From the NCBI GenBank assembly GCA_017535435.1, contig JAFXTY010000029.1:1-62288 (forward strand): a stretch of DNA of 62,288 nt. The letters are read 5' to 3'. Of the stretch, positions 13,130 to 25,826 are shown piece by piece. The notes under the pieces were generated by a model. That model saw only the letters and a list, made by a program, of their open reading frames with translations. It was not told where the DNA came from and did no database searches. This stretch comes from Spirochaetia bacterium. Lineage in GTDB: Bacteria; Spirochaetota; Spirochaetia; CADAEX01. Position numbers and translations under genes: made by a program. Numbering within the stretch: position 1 is the first letter of the stretch; each line of letters begins with the position of its first letter.

Positions 13130-13761
13130 CTGCAAATATCTTTAAGCAGACATTTATCACACTCAGGCTTCCGGGCATGGCAGCACTCCCTTCCATGGAG
13201 GTTGGCAGTCATGGAGAACCGGTACTGTTTCTCCTGGGGCAGTATTTTCCTTATGTCGGCCTCCACTTTGTCCGGCTCTGTGTTCTTGGTCAGCCCAAGG
13301 CGGTAAGTGACCCGCTTGAAGTGGGTGTCCACAATGACAGCAGGCTTGTCGAATACAGTGCCTACCACCACATTGGCAGTCTTGCGGCCGACACCGGGCA
13401 GCTTGACCAGCTCTTCTATACTGTTGGGGACAACCCCGCCGTAAAGCTCCAGGAGCTTCTGGGATGTGGCCTTTATATTCTTTGCTTTGGCATGGAAGAA
13501 GCCGGTGGCATGGATCAGCTTCTCCAGAACCGGGATGTCGGCCTTTGCCATCGCTTCCGGGGTAGGGAATTTGGCAAACAGGGCGGGAACAACCCGCATC
13601 ACCTGCTCATCGGTGGTCTGGGCGCTGAGTATCACGGCGATTAGAAGCTCAAAGTTGTTGCGGAAGTGGAGAAACTGTATCTCCGGAGGATAGTGGGCAT
13701 CTAAAATATCTGCAATCTGCACAGCTTTTGCTTTGATAGTCATATGAAAATAAAATATCAT
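13105..13761 (-). CDS. nth: Endonuclease III
   Basis: ILSAQTTD, HhH motif LPGVGRKTANVV, VDTH and 4Fe-4S motif C-x6-C-x2-C-x5-C. Confidence 0.96.
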   Translation of the reverse strand: MIFYFHMTIKAKAVQIADILDAHYPPEIQFLHFRNNFELLIAVILSAQTTDEQVMRVVPALFAKFPTPEAMAKADIPVLEKLIHATGFFHAKAKNIKATSQKLLELYGGVVPNSIEELVKLPGVGRKTANVVVGTVFDKPAVIVDTHFKRVTYRLGLTKNTEPDKVEADIRKILPQEKQYRFSMTANLHGRECCHARKPECDKCLLKDICSYGRTSRM

Positions 13762-13768
13762 TTATATC

Positions 13769-13797
13769 TTGACCGTGTAAAGGTAAATCTTTATACT
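13769..13797 (+). promoter_or_regulatory. Sigma70 promoter of tRNA-Pro
   Basis: TTGACC, 17-nt spacer, TATACT; 11 nt before the tRNA. Confidence 0.7.
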
Positions 13798-13981: not shown

Positions 13982-14572
13982 ATGAAGTGGATAAAAATCT
14001 TTTTGCTTGCAGTTCTGCTGATCTCTTGTGGCAATGCTCAGAATGGCCAAAATTATCAAGCCTTCAGTGTTGCCAAGGACCTTTTTCTCCAGGGGAATTC
14101 CCAAGGTGCTCTGGAAAAGCTGGAGACCCTTGAGAAACAGAACCCGTCGTATCTTCTTCCTTTTAATCTGGATGGAAGAATAAGTCTTTTCACTGGCCAG
14201 TATGAAAGGGCAGAAAAGAGGCTTAATCATGTCCTGAAACGCAGTCCTTTGGATTTTGATGCCCTGCGCTGGATGGCCAACCTTTATCTTCTTACAGAGC
14301 GATATGAAGAGGCAGAGAAGCTGGTCTCCATAGCCCTTGAGAATTATGTGGAGGAGCCTCGGCTGCTGCTTCTTCTTGCTGCCAGCTTTAAGGAGCAGGG
14401 AAAGGTTAAGGAGGCTGTGGTTGCATATCACAGGGCGTACTTGTTCGAGGTTGAACTTGCCTATGCCCATTATGAGATGGCTCAGCTTTATTCCCAGTTT
14501 GGCCTGGAAAAGGAATGCAAGGAGCAGCTGGAACGTGCTTCGGCTCTTTCTGAGAGGAGGTTCAATGAATAG
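13982..14572 (+). CDS. TPR-repeat lipoprotein
   Basis: Lipobox LLISC followed by tandem TPR-like helical repeats. Confidence 0.8.
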   Translation: MKWIKIFLLAVLLISCGNAQNGQNYQAFSVAKDLFLQGNSQGALEKLETLEKQNPSYLLPFNLDGRISLFTGQYERAEKRLNHVLKRSPLDFDALRWMANLYLLTERYEEAEKLVSIALENYVEEPRLLLLLAASFKEQGKVKEAVVAYHRAYLFEVELAYAHYEMAQLYSQFGLEKECKEQLERASALSERRFNE

Positions 14573-15950
14573 ATGGATTATTTTCTTATATTTTTTTATT
14601 TCACTCTCTCTTCCTGTTCCAGCCTTTGAACCATTCACTCTCAGCAAAGCAATTGCAAAGGGCCTTGATAACAATCTCAGTCTTGAATTTGCGAAGCAGG
14701 AGAACCGTATAGGAATAAAAAATATGCGGATGAAGTATAGAAAATTCTTCCCCAATTTGAATGTAGGCTACTCAGCCACCGATACAGTCACTTACTATGC
14801 AGACGACAGCCATTCCAGACAGTTGAGCGCAACCTTGACCCAGCTTATTTATGACAGAGGAGTGCTTCATTCTTCCATACATCTTGAAAAGGAACGGCTT
14901 GCTCTTGAGGCTCATCAGAACAATCTTAACCGTACATTCTTTATCTTCTCGGTGATAGACGGTTATAAGAATGTGCTTGAGCTTGCAAAGGAACTGGAGA
15001 TATCAAGACAGGCGCGAAATGCAGTATCCAAGCAGGTTGAGATAGGACATCTGGAGAGAAATCTTGGAGAGATAACCCAGTTCGATTTTCTGGAACTTGA
15101 GCTGGCATTGGCAGATATGGATATACAGATAACACAGATATCTCAGAAGCTGGATGAGGCAAAATCGGCTTTTGCATCAGTTATGAATATGCATTCCAAC
15201 GATGTTCCTGTACTGGCGGGGGAATTGAACTATCTCTATGGCGGCTTTGTGACTGAGAGCAGTGATTATTACGTTTCTCAAGCCATGAAAAACAGTCTTG
15301 TTCTGCAGGAGATTGAGTTTGCAGAGCATAAGGCTCATGCCGATTATGCTCTTCTGAAGAAAAAGTATGTTCCAGATATCTCTCTTTCATGCACAGCATC
15401 AGTTTCGGGGGAATCTTATCCACTTACAGAAAAAAGCTTCTCTATATTTCTTAACCTGGATTTCGATACACCTGCACTTCCTGCCTCTATAAGTGCAGGA
15501 ATCGGTAAAAATTCTGATGAGCAGCGATATAGGAAAGTTACGGCAGATGCTGATGTGATGGGAAATTCAGAATCGCTATACTCCAGCCAGAATGGAAAGG
15601 TGGCAATGGAGCGGACCAAGTGGAATCTTGAGAAGTACAAAAGGGAATGCAGGGAGGAGATTGAGGGGCAGCATAAGGCGATTCTTGTGCTCAAGGAGAA
15701 TCTTGAGGCCGCACGGCGGCGGATTGAGCTTGAGCAGAAGAAGGTGGAGATAGAAGAACTCAAAGTTCAGCTGGGAGAGGAGAAGCGGATTGATTATGTG
15801 GAAAGCCAGATAGCGCTGGCACAGAACAGAATAAAAGTTTTCCAGACTATCTCCCGCCTCTATTCCATGGAGATTGCATTTATGAATCTTTGCGGCATCG
15901 GAGAACCTGCTTCCTCAGGCAAATACCTTATCGTAGGGAGCGGCTTATGA
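14565..15950 (+). CDS. TolC-family outer membrane channel
   Basis: Signal peptide; AIAKGLDNN, ...FFPNLN, LTQLIYDRG and two repeated OEP halves; GEITQFDFLE. Start ATG 14565 after GAGGAGG. Confidence 0.8.
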   Translation: MNRWIIFLYFFISLSLPVPAFEPFTLSKAIAKGLDNNLSLEFAKQENRIGIKNMRMKYRKFFPNLNVGYSATDTVTYYADDSHSRQLSATLTQLIYDRGVLHSSIHLEKERLALEAHQNNLNRTFFIFSVIDGYKNVLELAKELEISRQARNAVSKQVEIGHLERNLGEITQFDFLELELALADMDIQITQISQKLDEAKSAFASVMNMHSNDVPVLAGELNYLYGGFVTESSDYYVSQAMKNSLVLQEIEFAEHKAHADYALLKKKYVPDISLSCTASVSGESYPLTEKSFSIFLNLDFDTPALPASISAGIGKNSDEQRYRKVTADADVMGNSESLYSSQNGKVAMERTKWNLEKYKRECREEIEGQHKAILVLKENLEAARRRIELEQKKVEIEELKVQLGEEKRIDYVESQIALAQNRIKVFQTISRLYSMEIAFMNLCGIGEPASSGKYLIVGSGL

Positions 15951-17284
15951 GAAATCTATTCTTTTTTTTCCTGCTTATAGCTCTTTTCTCCTTGGCTTTA
16001 TTCTGCTGCCGTAAACCAGAGGAGAAGATTGAGAAGGCTGTTGAAATAAATACTGCAGTTGCTGGCAGAGAGATGGCTGCTCCTGTAATATCGGCATTTG
16101 GGTCCATTGTCTACAAAGCTAAGGCCGATGTCTATCCTACCTCCATTTCCAACGTGAAGGCATTATTTGTAGATAAAGGGATGAATGTAAGCAAAGGCGA
16201 CATTCTGGCATTGCTGGATGATGTGAAGCTCCAAGTGCAGCTGCGGCAGTCTGAGTCTGATGTACAGTCCAAGAAAGCCCTGGTTGCTTTGGCAAAAGCA
16301 CAGTTTGACGAGGGGTGCCAGAATGCGCGAAAAACTATCCTTTCTATAGACCGGATTCAATGTGCAGTGGATCAGAAGCAGAAAGAGTACGACAATCTTA
16401 AGCGCATCTATAACAACAAACTGAAGCTTCATATCATAGGGGGGCTTTCTGACGAAGAACTCCAGTCAATTAAGATGAATATGGACTCGGCAGGCAGTGC
16501 TTTAGAACAGGCACTTCTTGAACTCAGGACTGCCAGGGTGGGTTTTTCTGATAAGGATATATATGGTGCTGGATATGAGATTCCTGAGGATAAAAAAGAG
16601 TACGAAGATCTTCTGATTCAGATCAATACTGCCACCTTGAAGGCTCAGCTGGAAGCGGCCAGGGCTGAACTGGAAGCGGCCCAGTCCCAGATGGAGAATA
16701 TCAAGCTATACCTGGAAGAGACAAAAATAAAGTCTCCGATTGACGGTATTGTTGCGGAACGGTATGTGGACATAGGTGAGAAGGCAGATACTGAGACCAG
16801 GCTTTTTACCTTATTTTCAACCGAATCGGTATATGTATCTGTGACCGTGAATGCCCAGCGTTGCAATGAGATTTCTGAAGGATGCACTGCAACTGTTCGC
16901 CTGGGGTCTGCAGTTCACAACGGTGTTGTAGAACAAGTTGCCCCTTATGCAGATACAAAAACTGGTGGTAGAACATTGAAGATTGAAGTGGATAACAAGG
17001 ACAAGTCCCTTATTCCCGGCCTTTTTGCAGATGTCTTGATCACCATTGGAGAAAAACAACTCCGTCTTTCTGTACCCAAGGAGGCAGTACTGCACAAGCA
17101 GGATGATTATAGTGATGCATCCCTTTTTCTTATACGGGATGGTCATGCTTTCCTGCAGAACGTGACAGTGGATTTTATCACTGATTCAAAAGTCTTCCTG
17201 AAGGAAGGACTCAAAGATGGGGATGTGGTTGCAGTATCCCGTCTGGGACTCCTCTCTGACGGATGTGAAGTGGAGGTAAGATGA
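15947..17284 (+). CDS. RND periplasmic adaptor (membrane fusion protein) with long alpha-hairpin
   Basis: Lipoyl halves V.KGDILALLD and IKSPIDGIV...V..GE; LIPGLFADV, LSVPKEAV and GLKDGDVV; ~160-aa coiled coil. Confidence 0.88.
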   Translation: MRNLFFFFLLIALFSLALFCCRKPEEKIEKAVEINTAVAGREMAAPVISAFGSIVYKAKADVYPTSISNVKALFVDKGMNVSKGDILALLDDVKLQVQLRQSESDVQSKKALVALAKAQFDEGCQNARKTILSIDRIQCAVDQKQKEYDNLKRIYNNKLKLHIIGGLSDEELQSIKMNMDSAGSALEQALLELRTARVGFSDKDIYGAGYEIPEDKKEYEDLLIQINTATLKAQLEAARAELEAAQSQMENIKLYLEETKIKSPIDGIVAERYVDIGEKADTETRLFTLFSTESVYVSVTVNAQRCNEISEGCTATVRLGSAVHNGVVEQVAPYADTKTGGRTLKIEVDNKDKSLIPGLFADVLITIGEKQLRLSVPKEAVLHKQDDYSDASLFLIRDGHAFLQNVTVDFITDSKVFLKEGLKDGDVVAVSRLGLLSDGCEVEVR

Positions 17285-18657
17285 GAAATATTATTTGCAT
17301 TATCATATGTTTGATATGTCTCTCCTGTGGGATTATCGATTTTTCCCCTTCTGAATCCATAAAGGTTAACCCGTCAAAATACAATCAGATCATAGGAGAA
17401 AATGAAGATATTTATATCAAATATGGTTTCTCGCCAGATCATGTCTCTGCCCAGTCAGCCTTCGAGCTTCAGGATGCTGACGGCAGAGTAGGTGGTTCTT
17501 TTAAGTGGAAAGACAATACCATGGTGTTTGTTCCTTTGGAGCACCTTGAACCAGCCCGGAGATATTTGCTCAAATATGCAGGCGAGGTTTCTGATAAATC
17601 AGGGAAGGTGCATAAGTACAATATTTATACTCCTTTCTTCTATATGATAAAACAGGCTGATAAACCTGATATCACCAGAATGAATCCTGCCGATGGCAGT
17701 ACTATACAGGCCTTTGATAAAATAGTTTTCTCTTTTTCGGAGCCTATGTCCCTTCCTTCCTTTCTTAGGGGTTTGACTGTCGCTCCTGATACTGAATATT
17801 CAGATGAATGGAATGGGGATCATACCCAGCTGATCTTGACACCAAGATCTGGTTGGAAAGAACATCAGGTATACAGTTTTTCTTTTGCAGGTTCGATAAC
17901 ATCAGCCGAAGGAATTCCTATTGCCGAACCAAAGACCTTCTATCTGTATTCCAGCACCGGTGCTGCTCTGCCATCTGTAATATCAATTGATACGGCATTG
18001 AATGACGGTCTTTCATATCCTCTGCTCCTGTCTGGTCTGGAAGGGGTAAAAAGTAAAGATGCTATAAGAATAACTTTCTCTGTACCGATGGATGCTGATG
18101 CCACAGAAGACGCTTTTTCCATCACTCCAGATATCCTTGGCCATACCTGCTGGCTTGATGACAGCACCTTGGTATTTGTTCCAGAAACAGAGTGGCAGGG
18201 CGAAACTTCATATTCGGTATCAGTAGGTACATCTGCCAGGAGTAGAAAAGGGCTCTGTCTCTCAGATCAGTTTGAGATCAGTTTTACTCCGGATGTTACA
18301 CCTCTTAAGCTTCTTTATATAGAAGGTAAGGCTGCCGATGGATTCCCCATCTCAGTTTTTAATCCTCATCAGGAGGTTGATATTGATGTTGGTGATGCTC
18401 TCTTGCCGGAAAACACTTATATCTTTGGCTTTGTATTCAACCATACATTTACGACATCAGAGGAAAAGGAACATATTTATTCAGGCATAAAGCTTAAAGG
18501 AATTTTCCCGCCATCACTTTCTTCTCCGAAGGTCATGTCTCTTTTCTGGTCTGGGGACAGTAAGATTCAGGTCACTTATACAGGTTTTGAACCAGAGGGT
18601 CGCATTTATTCATTGGATGTGAACGGTCTTGAGAAAATAACCTTGAGGACGCGATGA
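17281..18657 (+). CDS. Lipoprotein with tandem bacterial Ig-like (SbsA/Big_5-type) domains
   Basis: Lipobox LSC; repeated units with P.DG, I.F.FS.PM, W......L.F.P and Y...... Confidence 0.72.
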   Translation: MRNIICIIICLICLSCGIIDFSPSESIKVNPSKYNQIIGENEDIYIKYGFSPDHVSAQSAFELQDADGRVGGSFKWKDNTMVFVPLEHLEPARRYLLKYAGEVSDKSGKVHKYNIYTPFFYMIKQADKPDITRMNPADGSTIQAFDKIVFSFSEPMSLPSFLRGLTVAPDTEYSDEWNGDHTQLILTPRSGWKEHQVYSFSFAGSITSAEGIPIAEPKTFYLYSSTGAALPSVISIDTALNDGLSYPLLLSGLEGVKSKDAIRITFSVPMDADATEDAFSITPDILGHTCWLDDSTLVFVPETEWQGETSYSVSVGTSARSRKGLCLSDQFEISFTPDVTPLKLLYIEGKAADGFPISVFNPHQEVDIDVGDALLPENTYIFGFVFNHTFTTSEEKEHIYSGIKLKGIFPPSLSSPKVMSLFWSGDSKIQVTYTGFEPEGRIYSLDVNGLEKITLRTR

Positions 18658-20012
18658 TGAAAAAAATATTTTTGATTGTATTTGTTTTTGTCTCCTGCGG
18701 CATTGCAGAAGAATACACTCATATGAAATCACCAGAGGTTTCAGACTGCTCCTATGGTGAAGGCTGTATACAGGTAACTTTTTCTTCTGAAATGAAAAGG
18801 GGAATTACGGAGCAGGCTTTCTCTTGTCTGTGCAATGATGATGTGGCTTCTGGTATGTTTGTGTGGTATGAGAAAAAAATGTGTTTTTATCCAGACGAGG
18901 GAATCAAGGATAAAAGCAGATATGAGGTGGAGGTTGGAACCAGGGCCGAGGACAGATATGGAAATTCTCTCAGGGAGACCTTCAGCTATGTTTTCTCCAC
19001 CTTGGAAAAAGAAGAGAGTTTATTTGTTCAAAAAATGAACATATCTGATGGCGATGTTGTTGCAGACCTTAGGCAGCCTATCGAGATAACATTTTCCAGT
19101 CCAGTGGATAAGGCAACGTTTTACCAGGGTTTTGGTATATCCCCTTTTGTCCCAGGAGCCCACTCCTTTAAGGACAATTGTCAGACTGTTGTCTTTGTGC
19201 CTCTTGAAAAGCTGGACTGGAGTTCATCATATACCGTCACTCTGAAAAAGAGTATAGCAGACCAATATGGAAATACACTTGGGGCCGATTGTGCTGTCAC
19301 ATTTTCCACCTCCAGGGAGCCAGCCTGCTCTCTTGAGAAAGTATGTGTGAATAATGGGGTGGAGCTTATATCAGGAGGTGCTGTAAACAAAGGAATAGAA
19401 AAAGATGCGGCGCTGGTGCTGACATATTCGGGTACAGTAGATTCTAAAGTTGTAAGAAATCCTGTTGTTATATCTCCAGTTCAGGATTATACAACAGATT
19501 GGAACGACGGGTACACCCAATGTACCGTAACCTTCAAAAAGCCCCTTCCGTATAAGACTCTTCTTGAACTTTCAGCAGGTAATGATAAGAGGTATCTCCT
19601 TTATGTGGATGGGGAAAGTTCAAAACCTCTAGAGGTGCAGAAAATTAAATTCTATCAGGATTATACGGCGGATGCAGGTGAAGTGCTGGAGCAGGGCAGC
19701 GGAATCGTGTTTGAAACTGGTTCTCAGGCTTGCTTTGAGTTTGTTTTATCGGCAGGGAGCAGCGCGGAAATTCTGACTGCAGATGCATATGGAGCGGTGG
19801 ATGTGGCTGTGTCCCGGGGGAACCTGACCATAGATCTGGAACGGCTTGAGACCGGAAAGAGAGAATCGGGGATTTTATACATAAGAGTATTCTGTTCAAT
19901 TACAGCAGGAACAATACAAACTCCGGTGGTTGTCTCTGTCAATGGAATGTTGAAAGATTCCAACGGCAATACCTTGGAAAAAGATTATGTGTTGAGGATA
20001 AATGCACTGTGA
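18654..20012 (+). CDS. Lipoprotein with tandem bacterial Ig-like (SbsA/Big_5-type) domains
   Basis: Lipobox VSC; I.VTFSSEM, IEITFSSPVD, F.P...L....Y.V and D.YGN.L....F.FST repeats. Confidence 0.72.
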   Translation: MMKKIFLIVFVFVSCGIAEEYTHMKSPEVSDCSYGEGCIQVTFSSEMKRGITEQAFSCLCNDDVASGMFVWYEKKMCFYPDEGIKDKSRYEVEVGTRAEDRYGNSLRETFSYVFSTLEKEESLFVQKMNISDGDVVADLRQPIEITFSSPVDKATFYQGFGISPFVPGAHSFKDNCQTVVFVPLEKLDWSSSYTVTLKKSIADQYGNTLGADCAVTFSTSREPACSLEKVCVNNGVELISGGAVNKGIEKDAALVLTYSGTVDSKVVRNPVVISPVQDYTTDWNDGYTQCTVTFKKPLPYKTLLELSAGNDKRYLLYVDGESSKPLEVQKIKFYQDYTADAGEVLEQGSGIVFETGSQACFEFVLSAGSSAEILTADAYGAVDVAVSRGNLTIDLERLETGKRESGILYIRVFCSITAGTIQTPVVVSVNGMLKDSNGNTLEKDYVLRINAL

Positions 20013-22843
20013 GAAAATGGGATTTTTGCATACAGCATCCTTTCTCTATACTGATCTGCTGGCTTGGTATGGCCCTTTTGGGATTAGGCAGCCTTTTCAA
20101 GCTGGACATAGGATTTTATCCCGAGGTTTCTGTTCCGTATGCAACTATAACTACAGAGTTTTCTGGTATGCCGGCAGACGATGTGGAGAAGCTGGTCACA
20201 ATACCTCTTGAAAACAGCCTTTCTGCTGTAAAGAATATCAGACAGATTTTCTCTACGTCAAAAAGAGGCGAAAGCATTATCAACCTTGAGTTGGGCTGGA
20301 GTGCAGATATGGCCGTCACAGGGAGTGATATCAGGAATAGGATTGATGCAGTATACCCTTTTCTACCTGAAAAAGTTTCCAGACCGATACTTTCATTCAA
20401 ATCATTTGCTGATTCTCATATCATGACGCTGGCTGTGTTTCCTAAGCAGGGATTCCCCTTTCCCAGGGCTTCGTCATTGGTGGATAGAGAACTGAAAAGC
20501 CGTATTTTGTCGCTGGATGGAATTGCACAGGTTCATCTTATAGGGTGCACTGAACCTGAGATTCAGATAGATGTTAATTATCCTCTTCTCATGGCAGCCC
20601 ATTCCCTTGATATTCAGAAAGTGGCAGAAGTTGTCCGGAAATGTTTTTTCCGTTATCCTGTCGGGAATATAGATGAAGGGGAGCACTGCTATTCGATTAA
20701 AGCCGAGACAGATATACAGCAGCCTGATGACCTCCGGCATATTCCGTTGGATATGGAAGGAGCTATGACAGTAGGTGATGTAGCTTCCGTGGTTCTGGGA
20801 GAAAAGGAGAGGGATTCGTTTTTCTGTCATAATGGGCAAAATGGAATAGGCCTGAGGATTATAAAGACAGGGGGAAGCAGCCTTCTTAAAACTTGTAGGG
20901 AACTTCGGAGTATGGTGGGACAGCTATCCTCTGTTTACGGGAATCTTTTTGATATTGAGATTATAGAAGACAGCTCAATGCCCCTTGAACAGGAGATATG
21001 CAATCTGTCAGTCACTATCGTGGCAGGTATCATCTGTGCCTGCATTATCATAATGATTCTGATGCAGAACATTCATGTGGCGTTCATTGTCATCCTGTCC
21101 CTACCGTTCTCGCTTCTGCCTCTGTTTGTCTGCATGCACTGCGCCGGCATATCATTGAACATAATCACACTCTCTGCACTTGCTGTAGGTTCTGGAATGG
21201 TTTTCGACAACGCTGTGGTGGTCACAGGATATCTTCTTGAGAATAAACCTTATTATAGTTGTGTTCCTGCAGTCATCGGCTCCACCCTCACTACAATCAT
21301 CATCTTTGTTCCTGTCATTCTTCTCCCTGGCCTCATGGGCAAAGTTTTTTCAACGCTGGCAGTCACTGTCATCATGTATCTTGCTATTTCCTGCCTTGTA
21401 TCTCTTACCTTGACTCCGGCGTTATTTGCCATGATGAAAGATGGCATCAGATATAGTCCGAAAGCTTTTGCTTTTGAGAAATGGTATGAAAAATATCTGA
21501 ATAGAATGAGGACAAAGAAGATTATACTTGCTTTCATTGCCTCTGCTGTTCTGCTTCCATTCTGCCTTTTGTTTCTTATACAGTTTAAGACAGTTCCGGA
21601 GATGAAATCAAACAATGTTGATATACAGGTTGCATTCCCTTATGGATATCCTTTCTCGTCCTATATGGCTTGGGCCGGCGAGCTGGAAGAGCAGATTTAT
21701 AAAAGCCGGCTATGTTCAGATATCACAATTTATGGCGGTTATGACAGAGATTCACAGCAGGATTTGAACATATTCATATTCAATATGCGGAATGTGGATA
21801 AGGGTAGGGTTGAGCCGCTGTTTGATGATTCAAAATGGGATTATCAGGTACTGGAATCCAAGAACTTTCTTTCTGCTCTGGTAGGGGATGACAGTCTCTA
21901 TTCCATCACTTCTTCTGATCGGGCAACTCTTGAGAAAGAAGTTTTATCTGTCGGAGATAGAGCGCGGAAAGATGGAGTTTCAGCTACAGCAGTCCATGGT
22001 ATGAGGATTTTCCCGGAATACATGATTTCAGTCTCTGATAATATTGTTTCTGCAGCCCTCGCTCCTTCTGATATTTTCAATGCTGTTTCACTGGCTGTCG
22101 AGGGCTGTGTGGTATCCCAGATGGAACTGGATGGGGAGCCTGTGGATATCAGACTCAGATATGGAAAAGAGTTTGTGGATACACCTGAGAAGATAGCTGC
22201 TCTTCAGTTTAAGAATGATGGAAAGATGTTGTTTACCCAACCTTTTATTCAGCTGAAGAAAAGGTATGATTACTTTGCCCTCGACAGGTTGAACCGGCAG
22301 AATGCTATACTTCTGACTTTCGTACCTGACAATGGAAATGGTTATGGTGCCAGGAAAATCTCAGATGCGCTGACTAAGATTCATAAGCGGGAAATCTTTA
22401 TTGTTTTTTCAGGAGCACTGGTGTTTATCTGGTTCGTGCTTGCAATCCAGTTTGAGTCCTGCCGGAAGCCATTTCTTATTCTTTGTACCGTTCCTATGGG
22501 TGTTTCGGGAAGCCTTCTTGCCCTGTTTGTGGCGGGAAAGAGCCTGAATATCAGTTCTGTACTGGGGCTTATGATACTCTCTGGAACTGGGGTTAACTCA
22601 GGAATACTTATTTTATCTGATGCAGCCCGAGGTGTTCCTATTGCACGGGCCGCTTTATCCCGATTCAGAACAGTTTGCCTGACCCTTTTGTCGACAGTTA
22701 TGACTCTGCTGCCTGTTGCTCTTTTTGATTCGAATCCAATTCAGAATTGCGCCTCGATTTCTCTGCTTGGTGGACTTCTGTTCGGTACAGCAGCCCTGTT
22801 TGCACTTGTGCCTGCTCTTGTAAAGGAGGATTGCAGTGGATAA
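20009..22843 (+). CDS. AcrB/AcrD/AcrF-family RND permease subunit
   Basis: YPEVSVP...G...DVEKLVTIPLE; TM4 GMVFDNAVVV; TM5 GSTLTTIIIFVP; TM8-12 with QFES..KPFLI, GVNSGIL and RFRTVCLT..TVMTLLP. Confidence 0.9.
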   Translation: MRKWDFCIQHPFSILICWLGMALLGLGSLFKLDIGFYPEVSVPYATITTEFSGMPADDVEKLVTIPLENSLSAVKNIRQIFSTSKRGESIINLELGWSADMAVTGSDIRNRIDAVYPFLPEKVSRPILSFKSFADSHIMTLAVFPKQGFPFPRASSLVDRELKSRILSLDGIAQVHLIGCTEPEIQIDVNYPLLMAAHSLDIQKVAEVVRKCFFRYPVGNIDEGEHCYSIKAETDIQQPDDLRHIPLDMEGAMTVGDVASVVLGEKERDSFFCHNGQNGIGLRIIKTGGSSLLKTCRELRSMVGQLSSVYGNLFDIEIIEDSSMPLEQEICNLSVTIVAGIICACIIIMILMQNIHVAFIVILSLPFSLLPLFVCMHCAGISLNIITLSALAVGSGMVFDNAVVVTGYLLENKPYYSCVPAVIGSTLTTIIIFVPVILLPGLMGKVFSTLAVTVIMYLAISCLVSLTLTPALFAMMKDGIRYSPKAFAFEKWYEKYLNRMRTKKIILAFIASAVLLPFCLLFLIQFKTVPEMKSNNVDIQVAFPYGYPFSSYMAWAGELEEQIYKSRLCSDITIYGGYDRDSQQDLNIFIFNMRNVDKGRVEPLFDDSKWDYQVLESKNFLSALVGDDSLYSITSSDRATLEKEVLSVGDRARKDGVSATAVHGMRIFPEYMISVSDNIVSAALAPSDIFNAVSLAVEGCVVSQMELDGEPVDIRLRYGKEFVDTPEKIAALQFKNDGKMLFTQPFIQLKKRYDYFALDRLNRQNAILLTFVPDNGNGYGARKISDALTKIHKREIFIVFSGALVFIWFVLAIQFESCRKPFLILCTVPMGVSGSLLALFVAGKSLNISSVLGLMILSGTGVNSGILILSDAARGVPIARAALSRFRTVCLTLLSTVMTLLPVALFDSNPIQNCASISLLGGLLFGTAALFALVPALVKEDCSG

Positions 22844-25826
22844 CAATTTTATGAACTTTCGGCTTAAACTTATTTTTCTTGCCCTTTGTATCCTTATTTT
22901 CCTTGCTATAAAAGGACATATCAGATTGGGGTATGCCCCAGAACTTGAGAAAAAAAATATTGCAATTGCCTTTGACTATTATGGTGCGTTTGAGAAAGAG
23001 GTAGAAAGTCTTGTTTCCAGCCTTGAAGAGGCCTATATGGAATTGGAGGGAATAAAGGATATACACTCAGTATCTGAACCTGGAAAAGGATACATCCTTT
23101 GCATGTTCTCCGATAAGACCAAACTCGATGAAGCCTATGTTCAGGTCTCTGATATCACATCCAATGTATGGTCAGATTTCCCAGCTGGAGTGAACCGTCC
23201 TTCCATAACACGTAGCTCCAGGGATACATATCCTGTCTACATTTCTTATTTTCCGTTGGAAAAAGAAGCTGATGCTGATCTTATCAAGAAAGCATATGAG
23301 GCGGTACCTGGAGTGGGGAATGTAGAACTTGGTGGTCTGAAGAAGAAGGAACTGATGGTGGAGTTGACGTCTGGGCGTTCCGCCGGCATGGCGCTGCCCG
23401 GCGAGGTGCTGGGCAGCAGGCTGCGGAGCAGCAACCTTGCACGCAAGGTTGCCATGCCAGGAGGAGAGACGCTGGTTCTTTCTTCCCGCCTCTCTTCGGC
23501 AGCGGATTTCAGCCAGGTGCATATGACTCCCAGCTTAAAGCTTTCTGATCTGGCAGATATTAAGCATCAGTTGGCAGTGTCCCAAAGTCTAGGACATATC
23601 AATGGGCAATCTGTACTGCTCTTTTTTATAATGAAATCAGGAGAAGGAAATACTGTCCGGCTTTGCCGAGAACTGGAGAAAGTGACGTCACAATTCAACG
23701 GCGGTAAACTTTACAGTCTTGGGAAAAAGATAGAAAAATCATTCATAGGTTCCTCTTCTATACTCCTTCTCCTGTTTATTTTTTTATTGTTTGGCCAGTG
23801 GTTCAAGACCAGAAATATTCATCTTGCAGCACAGGCTATCTGCCGTTGTATAATAGCTCTCCTTGTCGCCATCTCTTCCGTCACTGCCATAGGTCAACAG
23901 GTTGATATGACGGTGATGATGGCCCTTTTCTTAGTTGTTGCTTTTTCGTTTATGGGCGGGAGAGTACAGGTTCAGAATAATGTACCACAACATTACAAAG
24001 AACCGATAAACAAACAGGATATATTGATACTCCGCAGCATCGGCAGAAAGAGCATAAACGATTTCACCAGTGAAGATATTGAGAAATCTGGCAAATGGGC
24101 ATATAAGTTCTGGCAACAGCTTGGAATAAAGTCTCCTTTTTACCGCCGTTTATTTGGTGACTGGCGAGAGGATGATATTAGTAATGTAAATCAGATTAAA
24201 GAAATTAAACTTCTTAAAGCCAAAGACCAGAATGAGGCAGTTTCTTATATAAAGGTTAAAGTAAAAGATGGCACGCTGTTTAGAGGTGATAAAACAAATT
24301 CTGATACTGGTTTAAAAATTAACATAGGAAGGCAGGTATATGGTGATACTGTTACTTATGCAAACCGAGCATATTCACGAGAAAGAAAACATGACGAATA
24401 TGAAGCATTTAATAATTATTTAGCAAAGATGTCTATACTTGCCAGCATTGGAGATATTGTTGAAAGGTCTATATTGCTTGATACAAAGATAAATGATGAC
24501 CAGGAAAACCCGTATAGGAGTTTTATGCACCATTTCTACTGTATTGCAAACATAGGAAACAGTAGTTATTTGGTTAAACTTTTAGTTGATGAAATCAATT
24601 CAGAAGGGGGAGATACTTACAGGGCTTACAATGTAAAAGACATAAAAATAGCACCTGTTGTCGGAATCAAGGTTTATAAGCCTTCACGTACAACAAGTGC
24701 TGATGGAAGTTCAACTTCCACTTACACTGTAGCAGACCTGCATTCACTTGTCAAGAAATATGATAAAGCGTTTCATCCGAGACATTGTGAACATCGTCCG
24801 AAAGAGATTCTTGCTGTACCTGTGTTATTAATCTTTTTAACAATGATTATTTTACTTTATGCCCCAGTTTACCTTATGAACCTGGTGCTTCCATTCTGTG
24901 CCGCTCTAACAGCTGGTTGCTGTGCTTCTGCTCTCTTTTTGTATGTTACAAAGAAAATCATATTGCCACAATTCCGTATCCCTCTGTGGGGCTTTTCGCC
25001 GATCCTGCTTTTTGCCCTGGGATTGTCCCCGTTTTCCCCGTTCTCGTCCTTTGGCACTGATGTTTCTTTCTCTCTTGAATATGATAGCGGAACTTCTTTT
25101 CATTTTATCCAGCAAAGTGCACTTGATATTGAAGCTGACCTTCTGAAATGGAATGCTTTTGATTGTCTTACGCTTCATATCGATCAGGGAAAGGCCTCTT
25201 TTACTGTCCTGGGGGTTAAGAAACGCGATATTCTGGCTAAAATCAATAAATTATCAGTTCTGTATCCAGAAATATTCTTTTATATTCCGGAAAAACATAC
25301 CAGACATTCCATTGATGTGACTGTTTATGGTAATGATGTGTCTGAAATCGAAAATAATATATTGCAACTGGCAAAATATGTGAATAAATATACAAATAAT
25401 GTGAATATTATCTATAATTTTAAATCTGATGTGACAAATATTGTGTTTGAGATTCCCGTGAAGTGTACTTCGGCAGGACTTTATCCCTATGAGGTTTATA
25501 AAACTCTCTATTACACTGTCTCAGAGCCAGTGGTGGACAAATATTTTGCTGATGATATGGAGACTGATGTGAAAATCCGAGGTGATGTCCGGTATCGAGA
25601 AACCCTTTCCGGGCTCCTTTCTGTTCCGGTTCTTTCCCCATTTGGCATGGCGGGGGAGGTGGGTGACTATATCAATGTCCGAAGGGAATCAGCTCAGGGA
25701 CGTATTTATCATAAGAACAGGATGAGGATCTTGAGCTTCTCTGTAACTGGAATCAGAAGGGCAAGACTTCGGGAAATAGTCTCCAAATTCCCTTTTACCG
25801 GCAGCTGCCATGGAGAAGTGGGTTAA
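22836..25826 (+). CDS. Degenerate AcrB-like subunit lacking TM8-12, with an in-frame ~275-aa foreign domain
   Basis: N-terminal RND porter domain (GAFEKEVE, LPAGVNRP-like FPAGVNRPSI); TM2-4; insert at ~23961-24795; TM5-7; second periplasmic domain ending RIYHKNRMR; stop before TM8. Confidence 0.75.
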   Translation: MDNNFMNFRLKLIFLALCILIFLAIKGHIRLGYAPELEKKNIAIAFDYYGAFEKEVESLVSSLEEAYMELEGIKDIHSVSEPGKGYILCMFSDKTKLDEAYVQVSDITSNVWSDFPAGVNRPSITRSSRDTYPVYISYFPLEKEADADLIKKAYEAVPGVGNVELGGLKKKELMVELTSGRSAGMALPGEVLGSRLRSSNLARKVAMPGGETLVLSSRLSSAADFSQVHMTPSLKLSDLADIKHQLAVSQSLGHINGQSVLLFFIMKSGEGNTVRLCRELEKVTSQFNGGKLYSLGKKIEKSFIGSSSILLLLFIFLLFGQWFKTRNIHLAAQAICRCIIALLVAISSVTAIGQQVDMTVMMALFLVVAFSFMGGRVQVQNNVPQHYKEPINKQDILILRSIGRKSINDFTSEDIEKSGKWAYKFWQQLGIKSPFYRRLFGDWREDDISNVNQIKEIKLLKAKDQNEAVSYIKVKVKDGTLFRGDKTNSDTGLKINIGRQVYGDTVTYANRAYSRERKHDEYEAFNNYLAKMSILASIGDIVERSILLDTKINDDQENPYRSFMHHFYCIANIGNSSYLVKLLVDEINSEGGDTYRAYNVKDIKIAPVVGIKVYKPSRTTSADGSSTSTYTVADLHSLVKKYDKAFHPRHCEHRPKEILAVPVLLIFLTMIILLYAPVYLMNLVLPFCAALTAGCCASALFLYVTKKIILPQFRIPLWGFSPILLFALGLSPFSPFSSFGTDVSFSLEYDSGTSFHFIQQSALDIEADLLKWNAFDCLTLHIDQGKASFTVLGVKKRDILAKINKLSVLYPEIFFYIPEKHTRHSIDVTVYGNDVSEIENNILQLAKYVNKYTNNVNIIYNFKSDVTNIVFEIPVKCTSAGLYPYEVYKTLYYTVSEPVVDKYFADDMETDVKIRGDVRYRETLSGLLSVPVLSPFGMAGEVGDYINVRRESAQGRIYHKNRMRILSFSVTGIRRARLREIVSKFPFTGSCHGEVG

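Follow-up and report, generated by a model that had tools for sequence, protein, structure and literature searches.

A candidate trans-envelope RND system with two Ig-repeat lipoproteins in spirochaetes and its reduced form in a rumen clade

Tripartite pumps of the resistance-nodulation-division (RND) family are among the best-studied envelope machines, and their published parts lists contain neither immunoglobulin-like (Ig) rods nor tetratricopeptide-repeat (TPR) lipoproteins. We analyzed a 62,288-nt stretch of the Spirochaetia bacterium contig JAFXTY010000029.1 (the window), in which seven open reading frames (ORFs) on the + strand between 13982 and 25826 encode, in order (g1–g7), a TPR lipoprotein, a TolC-like outer-membrane factor (OMF), a periplasmic adaptor of the membrane fusion protein (MFP) type, two Ig-repeat lipoproteins (Ig1 and Ig2), and two RND permeases (RND1 and RND2). 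We consider it somewhat probable (approximately 55%) that the seven genes specify one dedicated trans-envelope RND/MFP/OMF machine, with the Ig rods as constant structural parts instead of cargo. The first-pass annotation of this DNA had described a seven-gene set of this content with overlapping junctions, which the ORFs, the domain matches, and overlaps of 4–8 nt confirmed.

MdtABC-TolC and MuxABC-OpmB resemble the module in having one adaptor gene followed by two paralogous RND genes, and labor is plausibly divided between one energised permease and one that is not. The module differs from them in its constant inclusion of two Ig-rod lipoproteins and one TPR lipoprotein, in an adaptor hairpin that is approximately 90 residues longer, and in relay residues that are D/N/R instead of DD/K/R. 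Moreover, the RND2 of the window lacks transmembrane helices (TM) 8–12 and carries an insert with an LPD3 domain, so that two full permeases are found in the relatives L009 and L013 but not here. The scores of the module against the MdtB and MdtC equivalog models were 198.5 and 192 bits, which are far below the respective cutoffs of 1584 and 1774 bits. AcrAB-TolC and MexAB-OprM share with the module the OMF, MFP, and RND chassis as well as the lipoyl, β-barrel, and membrane-proximal parts of the adaptor. The known accessory partners of AcrAB-TolC, namely AcrZ and the TolC-bound lipoprotein YbjP, are small and unrelated. The adaptors of EmrAB-TolC and the HlyD type possess a long α-hairpin similar to that of the adaptor encoded here, but they serve MFS or ABC transporters, whereas the present adaptor has C-terminal RND-type domains and is encoded with RND permeases; the domain search detected no ABC or MFS gene within the cluster. 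A type I secretion system was rejected because neither the seven genes nor the flanking genes encode an ABC domain, and a Slam-type translocon was rejected because the cluster has no DUF560 barrel and the 196-aa g1 product consists of TPR only.

The characterized RND pump of spirochaetes is BesABC of Borrelia burgdorferi, an OMF-MFP-RND system encoded by three genes (PMC2279261, PMC3807786). BesA has no hairpin, in contrast to the extra-long hairpin of the present adaptor, and BesABC is devoid of Ig lipoproteins, TPR lipoproteins, and a second permease (PMC2279261, PMC3807786). T. pallidum has a different layout, in which an RND gene (TP0790) stands alone and MacAB and an OMF are encoded in an operon elsewhere (PMC8407342). 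The term "Ig-like" occurs nowhere in the text (720,000 characters) of a review on tripartite systems (PMC8277102), and no report of Ig-like lipoproteins in RND operons was found in the literature searched. These comparisons indicate that the module appears to be a previously undescribed RND variant, seen so far only in Spirochaetota. The window copy is a reduced form in which RND2 is degenerate and interrupted by an LPD3 insert, and it has neither a neighboring gene for a giant protein nor a small lipoprotein gene.

Conserved gene order and the Ig lipoproteins

The successive junctions of the seven genes, read off the sequence, overlap by 8, 4, 4, 4, 4, and 8 nt (ATGAATAG, ATGA, ATGA, ATGA, GTGA, and GTGGATAA, in this order), and a Shine-Dalgarno-like purine run precedes most of the junction starts. 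To find relatives, we scanned one genome per prokaryotic species by an alignment-based search and then compared the seven window proteins with all ORFs of the resulting loci, for which the gene starts were modelled. The scan gave 15 loci, 10 of which were in metagenome-assembled genomes (MAGs) of Spirochaetota; L013 and L020 are the same locus, as are L001 and L012. The full order TPR-OMF-MFP-Ig1-Ig2-RND1-RND2 was found in a rumen clade (L002–L007, comprising water buffalo and yak MAGs and ENA rumen contigs) with an Ig1 identity of 69–77%. It was also found in the distant lineages L009, L010, and L013, with an Ig1 identity of 26–33%. The same order extended up to the contig ends in L008 and L014, and L023 and L024 contained Ig1-Ig2-RND1-RND2. 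Both the RND1 and the RND2 lineages are conserved in L009, L013, L023, and L024. The 4-nt overlaps and the lipoboxes on the TPR protein, MFP, Ig1, and Ig2 persist in distant copies, and every lineage has one copy of each Ig paralogue. No pump genes were found near the non-spirochaete matches (L015–L019), which are large multi-Big_5 proteins. The recurrence of the order in distant spirochaetes means that the Ig and TPR genes, which the first-pass annotation had assigned to one apparatus with the permeases, do remain next to RND homologues.

One lineage (L001/L012 and L011) has OMF-MFP-Ig1-Ig2 only, bordered by opposite-strand genes, with no TPR gene or adjacent RND gene at the locus. Because the Ig pair is retained there with the adaptor and the OMF, it appears to be linked most tightly to the duct and not to the permeases. 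The ratios of nonsynonymous to synonymous substitution rates (dN/dS) against three rumen relatives were approximately 0.04–0.25 for all seven genes, which indicates purifying selection.

Domains were assigned with Pfam and NCBIfam profiles by comparing each score with its cutoff, and no other Pfam family than TPR, OEP, MFP, Big_5, ACR_tran, and LPD3 was found in the seven genes. The Big_5 scores of Ig1 and Ig2 were 81.6 and 77.6 bits, respectively (cutoff 23.6), and the two proteins align collinearly with 20% identity across 390 aa (E 9e-14). AlphaFold2 models built from alignments of diverse orthologues consisted of four β-sandwich domains in both cases. The predicted local distance difference test (pLDDT) and predicted template-modelling (pTM) values were 87.6 and 0.50 for Ig1 and 86.9 and about 0.5 for Ig2. 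The combination of low pTM with high pLDDT in these models is as expected for four domains on a string. Foldseek comparison with the PDB returned the BIg domains of LdtMt2/LdtMt5, SbsB/SbsC, and cadherin-type rods. These were generic tandem-Ig matches with template-modelling scores near 0.2, as flexible rods would give, and no enzyme or ligand-pocket fold was among them. The sequence of Ig1 gave only marginal BIg-domain matches in the PDB (E about 1e-3), and neither the fold nor the sequence matches pointed to a function.

In both fold and sequence, the domains of Ig1 and Ig2 thus matched the BIg domains of LdtMt2/LdtMt5 and SbsB/SbsC best. The lipoprotein-anchored BIg domains of Ldt enzymes are taken to hold the catalytic domain off the membrane. 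Unlike the Ldt enzymes and SbsB/SbsC, Ig1 and Ig2 are four-domain proteins encoded in a pump operon and have no catalytic or lattice-forming domain. The lipobox Cys is the sole invariant Cys in the Ig1 and Ig2 orthologues, and no conserved His or Met cluster was found in their alignments. A metal pump with a CusF-like chaperone was rejected on the grounds that, apart from the lipobox Cys, no His, Met, or Cys is conserved in Ig1 and Ig2.

In orthologues down to 26% identity, the lengths of Ig1 (446–493 aa) and Ig2 (451–493 aa) and their lipoboxes are retained. The dN/dS values of Ig1 and Ig2 (0.10–0.13) were about equal to those of RND1 (0.12–0.15). An exhaustive search of 1.84 billion cluster representatives with hidden Markov models (HMMs) gave 66 Ig1-type clusters (50% identity; 437–526 aa) that match Ig1 end to end, and all 66 scored higher with the Ig1 profile than with the Ig2 profile. 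A Cys lies within residues 11–40 in 61 of the 66, and in many clusters it is followed by a C-x-L-[IV]-x-[FL]-like segment, as judged by eye. The word-indexed homologue searches gave only 28–38 proteins, an under-count, and the exhaustive search indicates that the Ig1 family is much larger than they suggested. The conserved length, the four-domain architecture, the RND1-like dN/dS values, the gene position between the adaptor and the pump, and the lipoprotein (Sec/Lgt) signals together argue for Ig1 and Ig2 being fixed subunits and not cargo.

The segment that follows the lipobox differs between the two paralogues. In Ig1 (17281–17340 and orthologues), it reads C-G/N/K-L-I/V/F-x-F/L, followed by P-D/S...T-x-P, whereas in Ig2 it reads C-x-x-x-E/Q-x-F/Y/L-x-H/N/D-M-x-x-P-E-V with an invariant Met. 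These segments may be sorting signals or docking strands.

Duct components and permeases

The TPR lipoprotein contains TPR repeats only (TPR_19, 44.9 bits; TPR_16, 41 bits). Its orthologues stand at the head of the cluster in L002–L010 and L013, and its dN/dS values were 0.07–0.12. The OMF (dN/dS 0.05–0.07) matched OEP with 76.4 bits in two stretches (cutoff 22), which correspond to the paired OEP repeats. Its score against the TolC subfamily model TIGR01844 was 86.9 bits, far under the cutoff of 225, which indicates that the protein is a divergent member of the TolC-like OMFs. The adaptor scored 164.6 bits with TIGR01730 (cutoff 94.9) and is accordingly of the RND_mfp type. It aligns with MexC, MexA, and AcrA only from residue ~230 onward, residues 117–230 take the place of ~22 residues of the MexC-like adaptor 9j3d, and the alignment with EmrA (4tko) spans residues 70–335. 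The replacement of ~22 residues by residues 117–230 indicates that the hairpin is ~90 residues longer than those of AcrA/MexC-type RND adaptors, and the alignments support the earlier description of a long-hairpin adaptor. Lipobox Cys residues were identified by inspection in the TPR protein (LLISC), the adaptor (ALFCC), Ig1 (CLSC), and Ig2 (FVSC), as well as in all of their orthologues, and lipidation of the four proteins is predicted.

An eighth gene was observed in L009, where a 152-aa lipoprotein without a Pfam match (1470–1928) is encoded between the TPR protein and the OMF. Gaps of ~450 nt that are comparable to this slot occur in L008 and L010. The gene is absent in L013 and in the clade of the window, and the window has no room for one.

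RND1 scored 394.5 bits with ACR_tran, aligned with NF033617 over residues 5–928 of 944, and has MdtB as its closest solved relative. Its hydropathy profile contained about 11–12 hydrophobic helices (11 peaks in a 1+5 / 5 layout), in agreement with a 12-TM RND permease with two periplasmic loops. The AcrB-type relay (D407, D408, K940, and R971) is incomplete. TM4 reads FDNAVVV and retains the counterpart of D407, with Asn in place of D408; in TM10, Asn stands in for K940, and the Arg of TM11 (R971 position) is retained. The same pattern was found throughout the family: in all RND1 proteins and all full-length RND2 proteins, TM4 carries one Asp with a non-acidic residue next after it, and the K940 position in TM10 is invariably Asn. 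An Arg or Lys in TM11 is retained family-wide by RND1 only and not by RND2, which makes RND1 the probable better candidate for energy coupling. In the high-GC MAG L010 (8968–15321), the RND1 homologue is split over two frames, and the N-terminal frame runs into RND2. This break is probably a frameshift or an assembly error, and L010 was left out of the residue analysis.

RND1 and RND2 are paralogous (E 4e-8). In regards to RND2 of the window, the ACR_tran match is limited to residues 13–282. The predicted topology consists of TM1, periplasmic loop 1, the TM2–4 region, a cytoplasmic insert, approximately three TMs, and periplasmic loop 2. No hydrophobic helix is found past residue ~730; TM8–12 and the TM4 motif are missing. 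The insert of ~285 residues occupies the exact site of the TM4 relay motif in the alignment with relatives, and LPD3 (PF18798) matches its residues 481–589 (gene numbering) with 37.1 bits against a cutoff of 27. The insert is AT-rich (GC 0.364; GC at third codon positions 0.30), compared with about 0.44 for the rest of the gene. Its dN/dS values (0.22–0.32) show that it evolves faster than the remainder; the values were 0.18–0.25 for the gene overall and 0.10–0.14 for loop 2. The L005 orthologue has a much shorter and highly divergent LPD3 at the same site (34.3 bits). The insert looks like captured foreign DNA that was kept in frame. LPD3 domains are of a kind found in polyvalent proteins of phages and conjugative elements, and a PHROGs search with the insert gave a single insignificant match (E 0.006).

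RND2 is full length in L009 (959 aa) and L013 (961 aa), where ACR_tran matches positions 9–1017 of 1021 and 11–12 helices are present. These full-length relatives indicate that the truncated, insert-bearing RND2 is derived and limited to the rumen clade. The family-wide lack of the TM11 Arg/Lys suggests that RND2 was probably a non-energised partner already before the truncation. The first-pass annotation had described a truncated RND subunit. The truncation is right, but the description was incomplete in that the truncated state is limited to the rumen clade and is accompanied by the LPD3 insert at the TM4 relay site.

The possibility that RND2 is a pseudogene was rejected on the basis of dN/dS values of 0.10–0.25 across its parts and an intact frame in four of the five relatives with the whole gene. 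The frame is intact in L003 and L005–L007, and the L004 copy ends at the contig end. In L002, a single G>T at 16978 relative to L003, which is otherwise identical across the RND2 orthologue, creates a stop at codon 475 within the LPD3 insert and divides the orthologue into halves of 474 and 459 aa. This stop reflects either an error of assembly or a naturally split variant in which a discontinuous insert is tolerated.

Proposed machine and alternative explanations

In the machine that we propose, a trimer of the OMF and a hexamer of the long-hairpin adaptor would form an unusually long duct, and RND1 would act as the proton-coupled motor within a mixed RND trimer. RND2 would be its non-energised partner in an MdtB2C-like arrangement, that is, a periplasmic porter/docking subunit unable to translocate ions. 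In the rumen clade, it would have shrunk to a 7-TM protein in which only both periplasmic porter/docking loops are left and to which an LPD3 module has been added on the cytoplasmic side. A typical Ig domain is ~4 nm long. Ig1 and Ig2 would therefore be lipid-anchored rods of roughly 15 nm each, a figure taken from this typical length and not measured on the models, and they may serve as stoichiometric struts or spacers that brace the long duct across the wide spirochaetal periplasm. The TPR lipoprotein may assist docking or assembly at the outer membrane, which is pure inference. The first-pass annotation had favored a dedicated envelope machine over a simple efflux pump. The conserved order supports the core of this proposal, and of the three roles that it offered for the Ig proteins (cargo, surface extension, and scaffold), the features listed above speak against cargo.

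Several points weigh against the proposed machine. The folds, the conservation, and the residue patterns are established by the present analysis, but the stoichiometry, contacts, ion coupling, and substrate of the machine are all inferred. Proton coupling is an assumption, since the equivalents of D408 and K940, two of the four relay residues of AcrB, are missing from RND1. The L011/L012 lineage has no RND genes next to the Ig pair. The dN/dS values are approximate because dS is near saturation (about 1–2), and the available RNA contigs are of low depth, may include DNA, and are too sparse to prove co-transcription. Finally, it is possible that the Ig rods are located at the cell surface, as the sorting of spirochaete lipoproteins among the inner membrane, outer membrane, and surface is not predictable.

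A different function is suggested by the genes beside the module in relatives. In L020, a divergently oriented gene next to the TPR gene encodes a protein of 2,942 aa that has a signal peptide but matches no Pfam domain, and the divergent ORF upstream of the module in L009, which runs off the contig, is homologous to the N-terminus of this giant (32% over 238 aa, E 4e-35). A search with the first 400 residues of the giant gave eight more proteins of 2,282–3,133 aa. In two of the three homologue contexts sampled (L023, a Treponema MAG, and L024, a Spirochaetia MAG), the giant lies directly 3′ of Ig1-Ig2-RND1-RND2 on the same strand. The module thus adjoins a giant homologue (2,400–3,000 aa, with a signal peptide) in four distant loci. 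In the third context, L022, no module lies within 10 kb of the giant homologue, and L011/L012 possess the core of the module without a giant. The 62-kb window contains no ORF of >1,000 aa, and tblastn with the giant fragment found no match in the window or the rumen-clade loci. We conclude that the linkage between giant and module appears real but not universal. The module could accordingly handle or secrete a giant (2,400–3,100 aa) Sec-exported client protein that the Ig rods and the long duct would serve, with the rumen copy either serving a client encoded elsewhere or persisting as a remnant. This explanation is rather doubtful, because the operon of the window is under purifying selection although it has no giant neighbor and, to our knowledge, no RND transporter moves a folded or unfolded polypeptide of such size. 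A similarly tentative suggestion is that a heteromeric RND motor, a long adaptor/OMF duct, and two Ig-rod lipoproteins together form the core of a spirochaete envelope system, so far unrecognised, for handling giant Sec-exported proteins, of which the rumen version would be a remodelled derivative whose RND2 has turned into a 7-TM adaptor-like subunit wired to the cytoplasm via the captured LPD3 domain.

The remaining explanations concern the lipoproteins. Under an ordinary MdtABC-type efflux pump for small molecules (drugs, bile, or plant toxins), the Ig and TPR lipoproteins would be lineage-specific passengers whose role is marginal or unrelated. The OMF, MFP, and RND matches are all to generic efflux families, MdtB is the best solved relative, and the rumen is rich in toxic plant compounds that would favor efflux pumps. 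However, at identities as low as 26%, passengers would not be expected to retain their place and order, the 4-nt coupling, and the pairing of paralogues, and in one lineage the Ig pair accompanies the OMF and MFP with no RND gene adjoining. The module also departs from MdtABC in its adaptor hairpin, its relay residues, and its degenerate RND2, and we regard this explanation as unlikely. By analogy with Slam-type systems, Ig1 and Ig2 could instead be cargo or a surface extension, with the TPR protein as their chaperone. Both lipoproteins are encoded within the operon, and faint TPR_Slam and Tgl/PilW-type matches were obtained. In other systems, factors for the export of lipoproteins or secretins occur together with TPR domains, and SbsB/SbsC-like Ig domains are typical of surface layers. 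This analogy is nonetheless very unlikely to apply, as the length, domain number, and sequence of Ig1 and Ig2 are conserved as in core subunits and unlike exposed antigens, with exactly one copy per paralogue in every lineage. Folded four-domain rods of about 50 kDa are also unsuited to the RND porter pathway, and the cluster encodes no Slam/DUF560 barrel or other lipoprotein translocon.

If the proposed trans-envelope machine is correct, the two obligate Ig rods, the long adaptor, and the split-function permeases would illustrate how a duct adapts to a wide, flagella-housing periplasm, and they may hint at a cargo other than drugs, among which would be the giant exported proteins encoded beside the module in relatives. 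A natural experiment is provided by the rumen-clade copy, in which the Ig pair, the duct, and the motor are kept while the giant neighbor and the energy-coupling half of RND2 are gone; these losses and retentions mark which parts would be indispensable.

Locus coordinates, expression, and minor features

The coordinates of the seven genes and associated features are summarized in the table. The upstream neighbor is nth on the opposite strand, and metG, which starts 88 nt after the end of RND2, and a FemAB-family gene follow downstream. These housekeeping genes on both sides bound the seven-gene unit as the first-pass annotation had placed it. In L002–L007, metG and FemAB are syntenic downstream, and the upstream genes differ.

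Coordinates of the genes and associated features in the window
Feature	Coordinates	Strand	Evidence
g1, TPR lipoprotein, 196 aa	13982..14572	+	TPR_19/TPR_16, lipobox LLISC
g2, TolC-like OMF, 461 aa, Sec signal peptide	14565..15950	+	OEP PF02321
g3, lipoprotein periplasmic adaptor (MFP), 445 aa, extended α-hairpin	15947..17284	+	RND_mfp TIGR01730
g4, Ig1, lipoprotein with four tandem Ig-like (Big_5) domains, 458 aa	17281..18657	+	PF13205
g5, Ig2, lipoprotein, distant collinear paralogue of Ig1, 452 aa	18654..20012	+	PF13205
g6, RND1, full RND permease, 944 aa	20009..22843	+	ACR_tran
g7, RND2, degenerate second permease, 996 aa	22836..25826	+	ACR_tran and LPD3 PF18798
AT-rich, LPD3-bearing in-frame insert in g7 (residues ~372–655)	23949..24800	+	LPD3 match, alignment, GC
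Two sigma-70-like promoter matches	13733..13797	+	consensus matches only
Weak terminator-like hairpin over the g7 stop codon	25820..25833	+	pattern match only

The two promoter-like matches (TTGATA-17-TATCAT and TTGACC-17-TATACT, each 10/12) lie within the 220-nt gap before g1, and the terminator-like hairpin at the end of RND2 has a 5-bp stem followed by a T/A-rich tail. Many gut metagenomes of bovine and sheep origin contained near-identical DNA. Scattered parts of all seven genes were present at a depth of 2–6 in contigs from rumen RNA runs, some of which crossed the g2/g3, g4/g5, and g5/g6 junctions; this is weak evidence for a polycistronic transcript.

In the Treponema MAG L023, three convergent genes with NADase_transloc (PF25302) matches were observed just past the giant gene (19192–21547), which hints at a toxin-related neighborhood.

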